Sequence record: MK047718.1
Strand: one strand, 5' to 3'
From: Escherichia phage p000y
Length of the DNA stretch: 64,000 bases
Shown: positions 30,794 through 34,477 of the stretch, piece by piece
Numbering within the stretch: the stretch's first letter is position 1
How the letters are laid out: every line of letters begins with the position of its first letter
The notes under the pieces: generated by a model
Databases searched by the model: none
What the model saw: the letters and a program-made list of their open reading frames with translations, nothing else
Told to the model about the DNA's origin: nothing
Made by a program: the position numbers and the translations under genes

Positions 30794-31786
30794 ATGTTAC
30801 CTGTCGTCGGAAAACTTATTTCTCCAAAAGAACTGGCTGAGATTATTCCTTTGTCGGAAGCTTACGCATCACAAGTGGCTTCTCATCGCGAACAAGTTAA
30901 TTCGATTATGAACGGTGAAGACCCACGCAAACTTATTGTTGTAGGTCCTTGTTCAATTCATGACCCTATTGCTGCTGTTGAATACGGCAAACGTCTGGCT
31001 GAACTTCAAACTCGTCTTCCTAATGTTCTGTTAGTGATGCGCGTTTATTTTGAAAAGCCTCGAACTACCGTAGGTTGGAAAGGTCTTGTAAATGATCCAT
31101 ATCTTGACGGAAGTTTTGATATGAACCACGGTCTTATAGTTGCACGAACATTGTGTCGTAAACTTCTACGTATGGGACTTCCATTAGCAACTGAAGTATT
31201 AGACCCATTCACGATTAAGTATCTTTCTGGTATTTTCTCATGGGTTGCTATTGGCGCCCGTACGACTGAAAGTCAGACACATCGTGAAATTGCTTCAGGT
31301 CTACCGATGTGCGTAGGCTTCAAGAACGCAACCAATGGTTCTATTAAAGTAGCTACAGACGCGATGTATAGCGCCGCCTGGCCTCATCGGTATATGGGTA
31401 TGGACGTCGATGGTACTGTAGGCATTGTTGAAGCTGAAGGTAATCAGAATACGCATATCGTATTGCGTGGCGGGACCAACGGCCCGAACTATCATTCTTC
31501 TGATATTCAAGAAGCTTCTAACAAAGCAAGTGCAGTAGGTCTGAATCATTATGTAATGGTTGACTGTAGCCATGCAAACGCTGCTGGGCATTATAGCAAT
31601 CAAATTGGTATTGGTAAAAATTTAGCAGCTAATGATTTGGTCAAAGGAATTATGATAGAATCATTCCTACATGAAGGAAATCAAAAAATTTCTGATAATA
31701 TGTCCTATGGCGTTTCCGTTACCGATGCGTGCATCAGTTGGGAACAAACTAAAGAGCTGTTAACTTATATTAATAAGGTTCAATAA
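30794..31786 (+). CDS. 3-deoxy-D-arabino-heptulosonate-7-phosphate (DAHP) synthase, class I (AroG/AroF/AroH-like)
   Basis: 330 aa; colinear with E. coli AroG incl. catalytic motifs GPCSIHD, VYFEKPRTTVGWKGL, IGARTTESQ, HREIASGL, CSHAN, ESFLHEGNQ, TDACI; RBS AAGGA. Confidence 0.85.
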   Translation: MLPVVGKLISPKELAEIIPLSEAYASQVASHREQVNSIMNGEDPRKLIVVGPCSIHDPIAAVEYGKRLAELQTRLPNVLLVMRVYFEKPRTTVGWKGLVNDPYLDGSFDMNHGLIVARTLCRKLLRMGLPLATEVLDPFTIKYLSGIFSWVAIGARTTESQTHREIASGLPMCVGFKNATNGSIKVATDAMYSAAWPHRYMGMDVDGTVGIVEAEGNQNTHIVLRGGTNGPNYHSSDIQEASNKASAVGLNHYVMVDCSHANAAGHYSNQIGIGKNLAANDLVKGIMIESFLHEGNQKISDNMSYGVSVTDACISWEQTKELLTYINKVQ

Positions 31787-33055: not shown

Positions 33056-33179
33056 TATAAATAACTATATGAAGAGAACACTCTTCTAAGCGGTAGCCTA
33101 CAACTGAGAGACTTGTCGAAAGAAGGTGAAATTCAGACGAACGTGGCTACTAAATATTATCTCGAATTGAGAATTTAAA

Positions 33180-33428
33180 ATGATTAAACAATTACAACAC
33201 GCTCTTGAACTGCAACGAAACGCATGGAATAACGGTCACGAAAACTACGGCGCGTCAATTGATGTTGAAGCCGAAGCACTGGAAATCCTGCATTATTTCA
33301 AACATCTGAACCCGGTACAGGCAGCTTTGGCCTCTGAACTGGAAGCAAAAGATGAACTGAAATATGCTAAGCCTTTGGCTTCTGCAGCTCGTAAAGCAGT
33401 ACGTCATTTTGTTATTACCCTTAAATAA
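33180..33428 (+). CDS. rIII: rIII lysis inhibition accessory protein
   Basis: 82 aa; closely matches remembered T4 rIII. Confidence 0.8.
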   Translation: MIKQLQHALELQRNAWNNGHENYGASIDVEAEALEILHYFKHLNPVQAALASELEAKDELKYAKPLASAARKAVRHFVITLK

Positions 33429-33723
33429 GTTTTAGGTGATTCGCTACCTTAAGTGCGGCTAGAAAATCGAGGAGCCGTCGAACTGTCTGATTAATGATTT
33501 GCGAATCATTATAGTTTTAAGGCCCCGGCAGTTTTACGGTGTACCTCTTGAATGTATTTTGTACTATCACGCGTCAGAAAAAGGTTATCTGTCTAAGTCG
33601 TGGTTGGTATGATGACGGGTTTATGGTTATCCTGTCGTTAAATATCCAAAACCTATGTTCCCCTTGAGGGCTTGCGCAGGCAATGTCAATAAGTCCTGCA
33701 TTTTCATTTAAAGAGAATTTATA

Positions 33724-33903
33724 ATGGCAAAACAAGCTAAAGCAAAGAAAGCAGTTGAAAAGAAAGTTGATGGTACCTCTAAACGCGCTGGATACAAGCG
33801 TGGGTCGAACTCTCGTATTAATCAAACAGTTGAGAAGATCATGCGCAGAGCACGTGCAGTTCTTCGAGATGATGCTTCTCGTTTTGGAAAGGTTGTTGCA
33901 TAA
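33724..33903 (+). CDS. Small lysine/arginine-rich protein (59 aa)
   Basis: Hand-translated MAKQAKAKKAVEKKVDGTSKRAGYKRG...; immediately followed by a strong terminator; weak RBS; below ORF-track cutoff. Confidence 0.35.
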   Translation: MAKQAKAKKAVEKKVDGTSKRAGYKRGSNSRINQTVEKIMRRARAVLRDDASRFGKVVA

Positions 33904-33908
33904 TTTTA

Positions 33909-33930
33909 GGGAGACTTCGGTCTCCCTTTT
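33909..33930 (+). terminator. Terminator GGGAGACTTCGGTCTCCC + TTTT
   Basis: Perfect hairpin and T-run. Confidence 0.65.
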
Positions 33931-33963
33931 GTGCGTTTAGGGCAGAAAAAGTTTAAAAAAGAT

Positions 33964-33994
33964 GTTTACTCTCCTGTAGGATGTGTTACTATAG
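33964..33994 (+). promoter_or_regulatory. Early promoter (GTTTAC ... TGTGTTACTAT)
   Basis: Upstream of ORF 34035. Confidence 0.5.
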
Positions 33995-34034
33995 ACTTGT
34001 ACCACCTAATCAATAAAACAAACCGGAGAACAAA

Positions 34035-34403
34035 ATGAAAATCAATCTGAACTCATACATCAAATGTAAAGACCACGATGGTTATAAAGCTATCGAAATT
34101 AAAGAATTCCAGTGGATGTTATACAAAGAGCAATTTGAGTTCGTAGGTTGTATGACCCCTGAAGGTCCTTCAGATGATTTCTCTTGGAAAATTGTGTTAG
34201 CAAACTTTTTCACAGGTGACACATACGAATTAAAAACTATTATTACCGGTAAAATTCGTTCAGAAACATATGTTGACGAAGAAACTGGTTACTCTGAAGT
34301 TGTTACATGGTATCAAAATGGACGCATTACAGCAGATAACCTGATCGAAAAAATGAAAGCCAAAGGTGTTTTAAATTTAGACAATTGGATTAAAGTTGCA
34401 TAA
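34035..34403 (+). CDS. Hypothetical protein (122 aa)
   Basis: ORF with own early promoter. Confidence 0.6.
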   Translation: MKINLNSYIKCKDHDGYKAIEIKEFQWMLYKEQFEFVGCMTPEGPSDDFSWKIVLANFFTGDTYELKTIITGKIRSETYVDEETGYSEVVTWYQNGRITADNLIEKMKAKGVLNLDNWIKVA

Positions 34404-34407
34404 AACA

Positions 34408-34438
34408 GTTTACTTTGGTACAGGTTATGTTATTATAG
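34408..34438 (+). promoter_or_regulatory. Early promoter with stem-loop (GGTACAGGT ... ACCTGTACC around TATTAT)
   Basis: 9-bp inverted repeat enclosing the -10. Confidence 0.55.
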
Positions 34439-34477
34439 ACCTGTACCAACAAACAACTTAAACATCTGGAGAATAAA

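Follow-up and report, generated by a model that had tools for sequence, protein, structure and literature searches.

A ToxI-like RNA unit and neighbouring structured RNA modules in the rIII-30.9 spacer of a T-even-type coliphage

The closest described counterparts of the element reported here are the ToxI antitoxin RNAs of ToxIN, a type III toxin-antitoxin and abortive-infection system of enterobacterial plasmids, and the pseudo-ToxI of Pectobacterium phage phiTE. We analysed a 64,000-nt stretch of Escherichia phage p000y (MK047718.1; hereafter the window) and focused on the spacer between the lysis gene rIII and the homologue of gene 30.9, at the 5' end of which lies a single ToxI-like unit that we call module S. 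Genuine ToxI (pECA1039; E. coli pMB9_2 and pU90-1; Klebsiella p2018N16-148-4) shares with module S the unit sequence, the helix, C27/U28 and the 3' AAAU. However, genuine ToxI is an array of 4-5.5 copies followed by a terminator and toxN, whereas module S is one copy without toxN, and its 5' AAAU is displaced, lying 5 nt farther from the unit. In ToxI, the substitutions C27G and U28A each abolish antitoxicity (Blower et al. 2012, PMC3475682).

Like module S, the phiTE pseudo-ToxI reproduces the ToxI repeat as non-coding, intergenic sequence of the transcribed strand, and the two share the 2T form, the extra 3' A and an identical 5' half (AGGTGATTCGCTACCTTAAGTGCGG). They matched in 32 of 37 aligned columns, and the sole difference within the unit was GCGGGACG in phiTE versus GCGGCTAG in module S. 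phiTE carries 1.5 repeats in a tRNA-like sequence with the inactivating GGACG, whereas module S is one unit in the 3' untranslated region (UTR) of rIII with an intact GCUAG. The weakness of the phiTE pseudo-ToxI was traced to a trinucleotide in the C27/U28 region, the remaining differences being neutral; in its expanded form it suppresses ToxN and phiTE escapes, and phiTE-F gained ToxI by recombination with a plasmid (PMC3475682). Activity and tandem expansion have been demonstrated in phiTE.

phiTE, described in 2012, is the one experimental example of type III antitoxin RNA mimicry, and an apparently intact unit is now found in T-even-type coliphages, the current model group for ToxIN defence and for counter-defence by TifA. 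TifA (T4 gp61.2), which is dose-dependent, belongs to the same phage group as module S and presumably shares its target, ToxN, but it is a protein whose gene lies in another part of the genome, unlike the RNA module S. TifA accounts for the measured differences in toxIN sensitivity among T4, T2, T6 and RB69, and the papers describing it do not mention the RNA unit (PMC10853763; bioRxiv 10.1101/2022.04.14.488369). No literature pairing 'ToxI' with 'rIII' was found, and the spacer is not mentioned in a review of T4 post-transcriptional control (PMC3014915) or in the T4 dual-omics paper. A pseudo-ToxI is of a kind already known from phiTE; a T-even-type copy 3' of rIII with the critical motif intact was not found in the literature searched.

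The ToxI-like unit downstream of rIII

The spacer lies in a T-even-type phage block of Mosigvirus type (cd - 31.1 - 31 - rIII - 30.9 - 30.8 - 30.7) and was 100% identical in the Mosigvirus isolates vB_EcoM_G53, JK36, JK45 and MM02. Its position agreed with the original prediction, an earlier note on the window that had pointed to an unusual structured interval between the end of rIII at 33428 and a 59-aa open reading frame (ORF) at 33724-33903. The features of its 5' part and its two flanking genes, in window coordinates, are as follows.

33180-33428, + strand: rIII, the gene ending just 5' of the spacer
33423-33426, + strand: AAAU within the final codons of rIII, candidate site of ToxN cleavage on the 5' side
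33429-33723, + strand: spacer, 295 nt, between rIII and the 30.9 homologue
33434-33468, + strand: module S (pseudo-ToxI), a single 35-nt ToxI-like unit, AGGTGATTCGCTACCTTAAGTGCGGCTAGAAAATC
33464-33467, + strand: 3' AAAU, in the canonical place, with one extra A as in phiTE
33724-33903, + strand: 30.9 homologue, 59 aa, Lys/Arg-rich, without a Pfam family

When the spacer was compared by blastn with all complete E. coli genomes and PLSDB, its first ~44 nt alone matched. The matches to module S were mostly plasmid-borne (72 of 76 places, in 53 of 5426 genomes), with 87-94% identity across 35-45 nt. The matched plasmid loci were 36-nt tandem repeats, with 4.6 copies in pMB9_2, 4.0 in pU90-1 and five in a Klebsiella ColE1-type plasmid, and downstream of the arrays stood a terminator and then a gene whose annotation read 'type III toxin-antitoxin system ToxN/AbiQ family toxin'. 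Because this repeat-terminator-toxN layout defines ToxIN, the plasmid repeats were identified as ToxI RNA antitoxin. Judged by its sequence, module S is a homologue of one ToxI repeat; that the first 35 nt of the putative structured region are such a copy of a ToxI antitoxin RNA unit was absent from the original prediction.

Module S carries GCUAG, and thus C27 and U28, as active ToxI does. Compared with ToxI(Pa) it shows U9C and A25G, two changes that compensate each other. The core helix of the ToxI pseudoknot, formed by positions 8-11 and 23-26 (alignment columns 11-14 and 26-29), was compared in 16 units from bacteria and phages and was 95.3% paired, with two covarying pairs (CG/UA/AU and GC/AU types); none of 500 shuffles was as good, and slid controls reached at most 72%. 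The T4-type unit is more diverged (GGAGAUUCACUGCCUUAGUGUGAGCUA), yet it is compensated (CAC/GUG). For the flanking AAAU motifs, the AA^AU cleavage position was taken from ToxI numbering (PMC3475682). No second copy of module S was present in the 64-kb window, either by gapless pattern or with a two-unit query, which mapped onto one 35-nt site. The neighbours of module S are rIII and 30.9, in the same orientation, and no toxN is adjacent. We therefore classed module S as a pseudo-ToxI rather than a toxin-antitoxin locus, as expected for a phage mimic.

Several inverted repeats had been described in this region, together with two folds competing for one 3' arm. The repeat TGATTCGC/GCGAATCA was found at 33437-44 and 33501-08, 56 nt apart, and the hairpin arms TAATGATT/AATCATTA at 33492-99 and 33504-11. 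The local hairpin AATGATT-TGCG-AATCATT covaried (ATCGATT/AATCGGT in L029), but the long-range pairing of TGATTCGC with GCGAATCA did not. Mutually exclusive folds were not borne out: the TGATTCGC arm belongs to the ToxI unit, and its T4 form GATTCAC is compensated within that unit (CAC/GUG) and not in the distal arm; the tetraloop positions that the distal arm needs vary freely (UGCG, UGUG, UGAG, UACG); and one long-range partner is wholly missing in many relatives. CGGCT (33456-60) and AGCCG (33473-77) are both present as described, but they are not conserved in T4, which has GAGCT.

The two-unit query found ToxI-like units in 98 phage records from several families, and a pattern scan of IMG/VR yielded more. 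phiTE ('pseudo-ToxI') was the sole annotated phage case among the 98 records, leaving about a hundred phage genomes in which such units are largely unannotated, frequently within tRNA clusters or elsewhere under high expression. In the T4-like Serratia phage 92A1, the equivalent rIII-30.9 spacer contains module B1 (described below) followed by two tandem ToxI-like units. Klebsiella Sugarlandvirus PWKp9S carries two units identical to Klebsiella plasmid ToxI inside a duplicated tRNA of a tRNA cluster (L197 500-640), and the phiTE copy is joined to a tRNA 3' half (L138 815-900); these placements suggest that tRNA-processing enzymes release or stabilise the decoy in both phages. Two units on contig L186 stand behind a consensus sigma-70 promoter, TTGACA-17-TATAAT. 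The tRNA-cluster and own-promoter contexts fit an RNA needed in quantity. Seen through the homology of their units, these records show that phages acquired ToxI-like units recurrently and independently. As a separate observation on annotation, the two-unit array and B1 of 92A1 (649-780 of L196) are recorded as a 43-aa 'hypothetical protein', which is probably a mis-annotated non-coding RNA.

Modular make-up and conservation of the spacer

The spacer was matched in 775 phage records. A non-coding rIII-30.9 gap of ~120-430 nt occurs in Tequatrovirus, Mosigvirus, Dhakavirus, Gaprivervirus, Gelderlandvirus and Jiaodavirus, and also in Kanagawavirus, Karamvirus, Moonvirus, Mosugukvirus and Tegunavirus; the T4 counterpart is an unannotated 244-nt gap at 130541-130784 of AF158101. 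For comparison we used a set of 42 distinct spacers homologous to this one, drawn from about ten genera, among which no conserved ORF was found. Identity to T4 was 97.8% for module A and 98.3% for module B, compared with 85.5% for rIII (66% at third codon positions), 88.6% for gene 31 and 68% for 30.8. Since the shared modules are far more T4-like than the neighbouring genes, the spacer is not a decaying pseudogene. The best explanation, which we consider fairly probable when taken jointly with a decoy role of module S, is that the spacer is a mosaic of small, independently folding RNA modules that are under purifying selection and have been reshuffled among genera. From module S onwards the modules follow in this order.

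33469-33547, + strand: module A, a long bulged hairpin with 25 predicted pairs
33493-33510, + strand: apical hairpin AATGATT-TGCG-AATCATT, within module A
33562-33609, + strand: module H, an insertable hairpin with core GCGUCAGAAAAAGGUUAUCUGUCUAAG, not in T4; module C in its place elsewhere
33607-33661, + strand: module B1, an H-type pseudoknot; P1 GACGGG/CCTGTC, P2 loop GGTT/tail AACC
33660-33670, + strand: hp1, a small invariant hairpin or motif, CCCCTTGAGGG, of the form GU(U/A)CCC...GAGGGCUUG
33676-33699, + strand: hp2, GCAGG-CAATGTCAATAAGT-CCTGC, with a 5-bp stem and a 14-nt loop
33700-33718, + strand: hp3, AUUUUC...GAGAAU, covering the weak 30.9 Shine-Dalgarno sequence; with the leader it extends over 33700-33723

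The set and order of modules varied among phages. Module H is missing from the T4 spacer, module S from RB69 and several other phages, and the W143 spacer consists of B1-hp1-hp2 only. A 137-nt module C sits where H would be in VR26, ZQ3 and 236Ecol005PP, and the order in Jiaodavirus is hairpin-B1-S-C-hp1-hp2. In the phi92-like Justusliebigvirus (phi92, muut, L016, L027), an S-A-B1-hp1-hp2 block of T4 type lies between tRNA-Gly and tRNA-Gln (in phi92 at 1501-1826 of L008); in this block the start codon of 30.9 runs directly into the final ~27 codons of rIII, with TTTAT flanks. This circularly permuted order suggests a captured unit of a tandem duplication. The phi92-like phages keep the doubly compensated stem GCCAU/AUGGU.

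Module B1 was found in all 42 distinct spacers, and its covariance model gave a single match in the window (72.8 bits, E = 1e-13). It comprises P1, a short L1, a P2 strand in the loop, an A-rich linker (GTTAAATATCCAAAA, with the conserved single-stranded sequence GUUAAAUAUCCAAAAC) and the P2 partner. A first automated P1/P2 finder proved too crude, and a column-based analysis was used instead. P1 alone was 93.6% paired, and P1 with P2 in a fixed register 86.5%, with none of 500 shuffles as good; the outer P1 pairs were of AU/UA/GC and CG/UA/GC types, without a broken cell in 28 distinct sequences. Because the P2 register shifts between lineages, P2 was tested through the energy of the duplex: loops combined with their own tails gave a mean of -7.69 kcal/mol, versus -4.25 +/- 0.81 for permuted tails, and none of 5000 permutations was as good (10 loop classes). 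The P2 pairs ranged from GGUU/AACC in the window to UUGUGAG/CUCACAA in Kosakonia 305, CAAGGUU/AACCUUG in a Proteus phage and AGUAGU/ACUACU in L056. From the P1 covariation and the P2 energy test we conclude that B1 is an H-type pseudoknot. H-type pseudoknots with an A-rich third loop include the preQ1-I riboswitch aptamers and the T4 gene 32 mRNA pseudoknot, whose topology B1 resembles; B1 differs in being larger (6-7-bp P1, 13-14-nt linker) and in having no fixed distance to a start codon and no Rfam match.

Four further ideas about B1 were rejected. It is not a general ToxI companion, being absent from toxIN plasmids and from ToxI-bearing phages outside the T4 type; it is not a mimic of bacterial sequence, as the E. 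coli and PLSDB comparison matched the ToxI-like 44 nt only; it is not a dispersed phage motif, being single-copy in the window; and its linker is not a ToxN site, since the AAAU there is unconserved (AAAC or AACA in LilPanda, 92A1 and the Proteus phage). The B1 linker pattern, when searched in GTDB genomes, gave chance matches and an unrelated repeat only. That repeat, ATAATCCTCCCGTTAAATAAGCAAAACAAGTGATTTAAT, is common to many Methylobacter genomes and occurs on Methylobacter/Methylococcaceae contigs (L143, L144, L146, L149, L151, L155, L156 and others).

In module A, five pairs had changes on both sides, as in GCCGU/ACGGU versus GCCAU/AUGGU and AACUGUC/GGCAGUU versus AAUUGUC/GACAAUU, and STML-198 has a short-tip version of the stem. 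Module H in LF82-8 changed its outer stem from CACG/CGTG to CATG/CATG and its inner stem from CAGA/TCTG to CAGC/GCTG, and in L096 the H core stands at another position with a different outer stem. The three C-G pairs of hp1 are invariant and hence show no covariation either way; hp1 occupies a different position in L083, L096 and TG1. The hp2 stems were compared by eye, as MAFFT misaligned distant ones: GCAGG/CCTGC in the window, GCGGG/CCTGC in VR26, GAACTGG/CCAGTTC around an identical loop in STML-198, GAGAG/CTCTC in Kosakonia 305, and GGGAGC/GCTCCC with a long insert in PG7 and Moon. The loop CAAUGUCAAUAAGU is common to T-even and Gelderlandvirus phages. The hp3 consensus (RNAalifold) has six pairs, three of them changed on both sides, with some broken cells.

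The annotation of this 3' part differs among records. In T6, in W143 and in an older T4 annotation, 30.9 begins further upstream, at an ATG within the loop of hp2 (region 33682-33726 of the window), and has 72 aa (11.1 kDa). In the window this ATG is out of frame through a 1-nt shorter A-run (TTTAAAG versus TTTAAAAG), and the reading from it (ATG TCA ... TTA TAA) stops overlapping the true 30.9 start; the 59-aa 30.9 is therefore the conserved form. The ATK47 record has a 10-bp feature, 'ori type 2 repeat', that corresponds to ~33703-33712 (L001 1775-1784), in hp3/leader, and the features examined gave no support for an origin.

Taken as a single sequence, the spacer did not fold better than chance: its minimum free energy was -73.1 kcal/mol, and shuffled sequences averaged -71.8 (z = -0.28, + strand), with z = -0.97 for the minus strand and -2.08 for the homologous T4 spacer. 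The case for real structure consequently comes from the comparison among relatives, in which several helices keep their pairing through compensatory changes, as a structured RNA would. Invariant G-U pairs in the helices assign the structures to the + strand. The Rfam 15 covariance models returned only sub-threshold, snoRNA-type noise on the spacer (15.2 bits, E = 8.4), so that a scan proposed with the original prediction gave no family match; the T4, VR26, IME08 and PG7 spacers likewise had no Rfam match, and ARAGORN called no tRNA or tmRNA in the spacer. The claim that no + strand ORF exceeds about 20 codons was accurate for ATG starts but not for a 37-aa TTG ORF (33499-33612) and a 42-aa GTG ORF (33539-33667). 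Both are unconserved: the corresponding segment is absent in T4, and the alignment contains 1-nt indels. These data support a non-coding, + strand structured RNA region.

Two further modules were observed in relatives or nearby. Module C (137 nt) occupies the rIII-30.9 spacer in many genera, among them the spacers of VR26 (L005 925-1061), PG7, Moon, Kosakonia 305, LilPanda and L049, and is absent from the window. Its RNAalifold model has 39 predicted pairs, seven with compensatory changes and almost none broken, with hairpins closed by GNRA loops (TCGA-GAAA-TCGA versus CTGA-GAAA-TCAG) and extended single-stranded stretches that do not vary. It had no match in Rfam, PLSDB or E. coli genomes and is a candidate new structured RNA class. 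A relationship to the RNase P S-domain, considered from the shared motifs GUGCAACAGA, GAUGGCC, CAAGGCC and GAACCCGG, was dropped when the Rfam models gave no support. Module R (33093-33150) lies in the gene 31-rIII spacer, 3' of the late promoter motif listed below, reads GTAGCC-TACAACTGAGAGACTTGTCGAAAGAAGGTGAAATTCAGACGAAC-GTGGCTAC and is single-copy in the window. Its core forms the hp2 tip in PG7, Moon and LilPanda with compensatory changes: CTGA/TCAG versus CCGA/TCGG, and ACTT/AAGGT versus AACT/AGTT versus ATCT/AGAT in T4-type phages. According to a 2010 review, T4 then had no characterised riboswitch or trans-acting small RNA, and its authors looked to comparative genomics for candidates (PMC3014915); B1 and the module C of sister genera are well-supported T4-type RNA candidates of the kind then sought.

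Proposed role of the ToxI-like unit and rival explanations

We propose that module S acts as a ToxN decoy for the phage, a reading that, together with the modular make-up of the spacer, has a reasonably good chance of being correct. The promoter motif that would supply it is the following.

33056-33063, + strand: late promoter motif TATAAATA, upstream of rIII

We take this motif to be the T4-type late promoter consensus. It is a likely source of abundant late readthrough from rIII into the spacer; the promoter/terminator scan found no terminator-like site between it and 33909, and no intrinsic terminator or sigma-70 promoter inside 33429-33723. T4 early (GTTTAC-17-TATAAT), MotA-box middle and late promoters were also sought by eye in the spacer. 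A promoter candidate, TTTTAC-17-TATTTT, was rejected, being confined to genomes with module H and lost in T4. Module S would thus be made abundantly as the 3' UTR of rIII transcripts and could be freed at the flanking AAAU sites by ToxN itself or by host RNases. The freed unit would bind ToxN released on host transcription shut-off, reducing cleavage of phage mRNA. A single copy would probably give only partial protection; by the precedent of phiTE it might serve as the seed for tandem expansion and full escape. In the same transcript, hp3 may tune 30.9 translation by occluding the ribosome-binding site, and A, H, B1, hp1 and hp2 are most likely, as ranked hypotheses, scaffolds for stabilisation or processing, or else additional decoys that bind proteins. 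The decoy reading raises the questions of how the unit affects ToxIN protection, whether it expands under selection and whether it bears on host-range differences within Mosigvirus.

Several findings weigh against this proposal. Module S is single-copy, and the 1.5 repeats of phiTE gave no protection (PMC3475682). With the 5' AAAU displaced by 5 nt and an extra 3' A, processing and closed ToxIN assembly may be imperfect. Plasmid-borne toxIN strongly restricts T2, T4 and T6, which possess a diverged unit, and RB69 is less restricted though it has no unit; a correlation between the unit and the toxIN resistance of RB69 was rejected for that reason, and the known sensitivity differences are explained by TifA and not by this RNA. 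The unit is dispensable, being missing from many Mosigvirus, Dhakavirus and Karamvirus spacers. Nothing ties A, H, B1, hp1 or hp2 to ToxIN. B1 was found neither in toxIN plasmids nor in non-T4 ToxI-bearing phages, and sequence of this sort was not found in E. coli genomes, PLSDB or, by pattern, GTDB.

Among the alternatives, the whole spacer might be a cis-acting leader of 30.9, with B1, hp1 and hp2 forming an operator to which a protein of phage or host origin binds (the basic 30.9 protein being one possibility), hp3 acting as a gate and the likeness to ToxI being incidental; we regard this as a tenable but minority possibility. B1 and 30.9 occur together in every T4-like spacer examined, hp3 hides the 30.9 Shine-Dalgarno sequence with some compensatory change, the 30.9 protein is small, very basic and of no known family, and T4 offers precedents in the hairpin and pseudoknot operators upstream of genes 32 and 43 and in hairpin-blocked initiation regions (PMC3014915). 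However, the gap between B1 and 30.9 varies from ~68 nt here to ~290 nt in LilPanda, where the ToxI unit, module C and a long hp2 intervene, and this variable distance disfavours a simple operator role for B1. In the phi92-like phages, S, A, B1, hp1 and hp2 are retained, a compensated stem included, yet they adjoin an rIII fragment and not 30.9. The modules move independently of one another, and a leader role leaves the ToxI homology unaccounted for. That homology would be explained if the unit were a neutral scar of recombination with a toxIN plasmid, as phiTE-F precedes (PMC3475682), and if the rest were a generic stabilising or processing structure for rIII and 30.9 mRNA. The presence or absence of the unit among close relatives fits a scar, and the conserved position of hp2 with unrelated sequences is typical of stabilisers. 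We nevertheless consider it improbable: the unit persists in Mosigvirus, Gaprivervirus, Tequatrovirus, Jiaodavirus, Gelderlandvirus and Tegunavirus with helix-preserving changes and with the critical C27/U28 retained, independent phage families hold units in high-expression contexts (tRNA clusters, an own promoter), the conserved single strand and two covarying helices of B1 exceed what a stabiliser needs, and the 98% identity to T4 is far above that of neighbouring genes.

A function at the level of DNA, as a replication origin, recombination hotspot or mobile regulatory cassette, has very little going for it. The 'ori type 2 repeat' of ATK47 and the cassette-like shuffling of modules among genera point that way, but the former is a bare pattern annotation, direct repeats and iterons are absent, promoter-like sites are not above chance, and the invariant or covarying G-U pairs are meaningful only in + strand RNA. 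The original prediction had also allowed for the decayed remnant of a protein-coding gene, and this is effectively refuted. It could appeal to the two non-ATG + strand ORFs (37 and 42 codons), to a 37-aa ORF annotated in the G53 record and to the longer 30.9 annotated from inside hp2 in T6 and W143; however, none of the 42 spacers has an intact ORF, single-base indels are tolerated in B1, the linker and the leader, the ATG of the longer 30.9 is out of frame, the substitutions are compensatory in helices rather than synonymous, and the modules are more conserved than the flanking genes.

Beyond the decoy role of module S, we can picture the spacer in Tevenvirinae as an 'RNA counter-defence island' of swappable structured RNAs, each a decoy or inhibitor of a different host RNA-binding or RNA-cleaving defence protein. 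Its members would be the ToxI mimic, B1, module C (137 nt, pseudoknotted) and the hairpins A, H and R. We think this unlikely. Were it true, B1 and module C would represent new classes of anti-defence RNA in phages, without an Rfam counterpart, and the ToxI unit would be the first of them to be decoded.

Neighbouring genes and regulatory sequences

Upstream of the region, a 330-aa ORF (30794-31786) lies directly before the dCMP deaminase gene and encodes a DAHP synthase (PF00793, E = 7e-75). Among T-even-type phages such an auxiliary metabolic gene, for an enzyme of the aromatic-amino-acid pathway, is unusual.

Downstream, the terminator that had been placed after the 59-aa ORF was present as a stem-loop, GGGAGACTTCGGTCTCCC, with a T-run at 33909-33931. 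About 30 nt further on stands an early-promoter-like GTTTAC-17-TACTAT, the whole region covering 33909-33995. Mobile PeSL cassettes of T4-type phages, ascribed to Arbiol et al. in 2010, reportedly consist of a terminator-like stem-loop and an early promoter and are shuffled between genomes. The arrangement at 33909-33995 matches this layout. The spacer modules resemble PeSL cassettes in being short, shuffled and intergenic, but they have no promoter motifs and possess conserved loops and pseudoknots. A second, similar terminator/promoter-like pair is located near 34396-34440.

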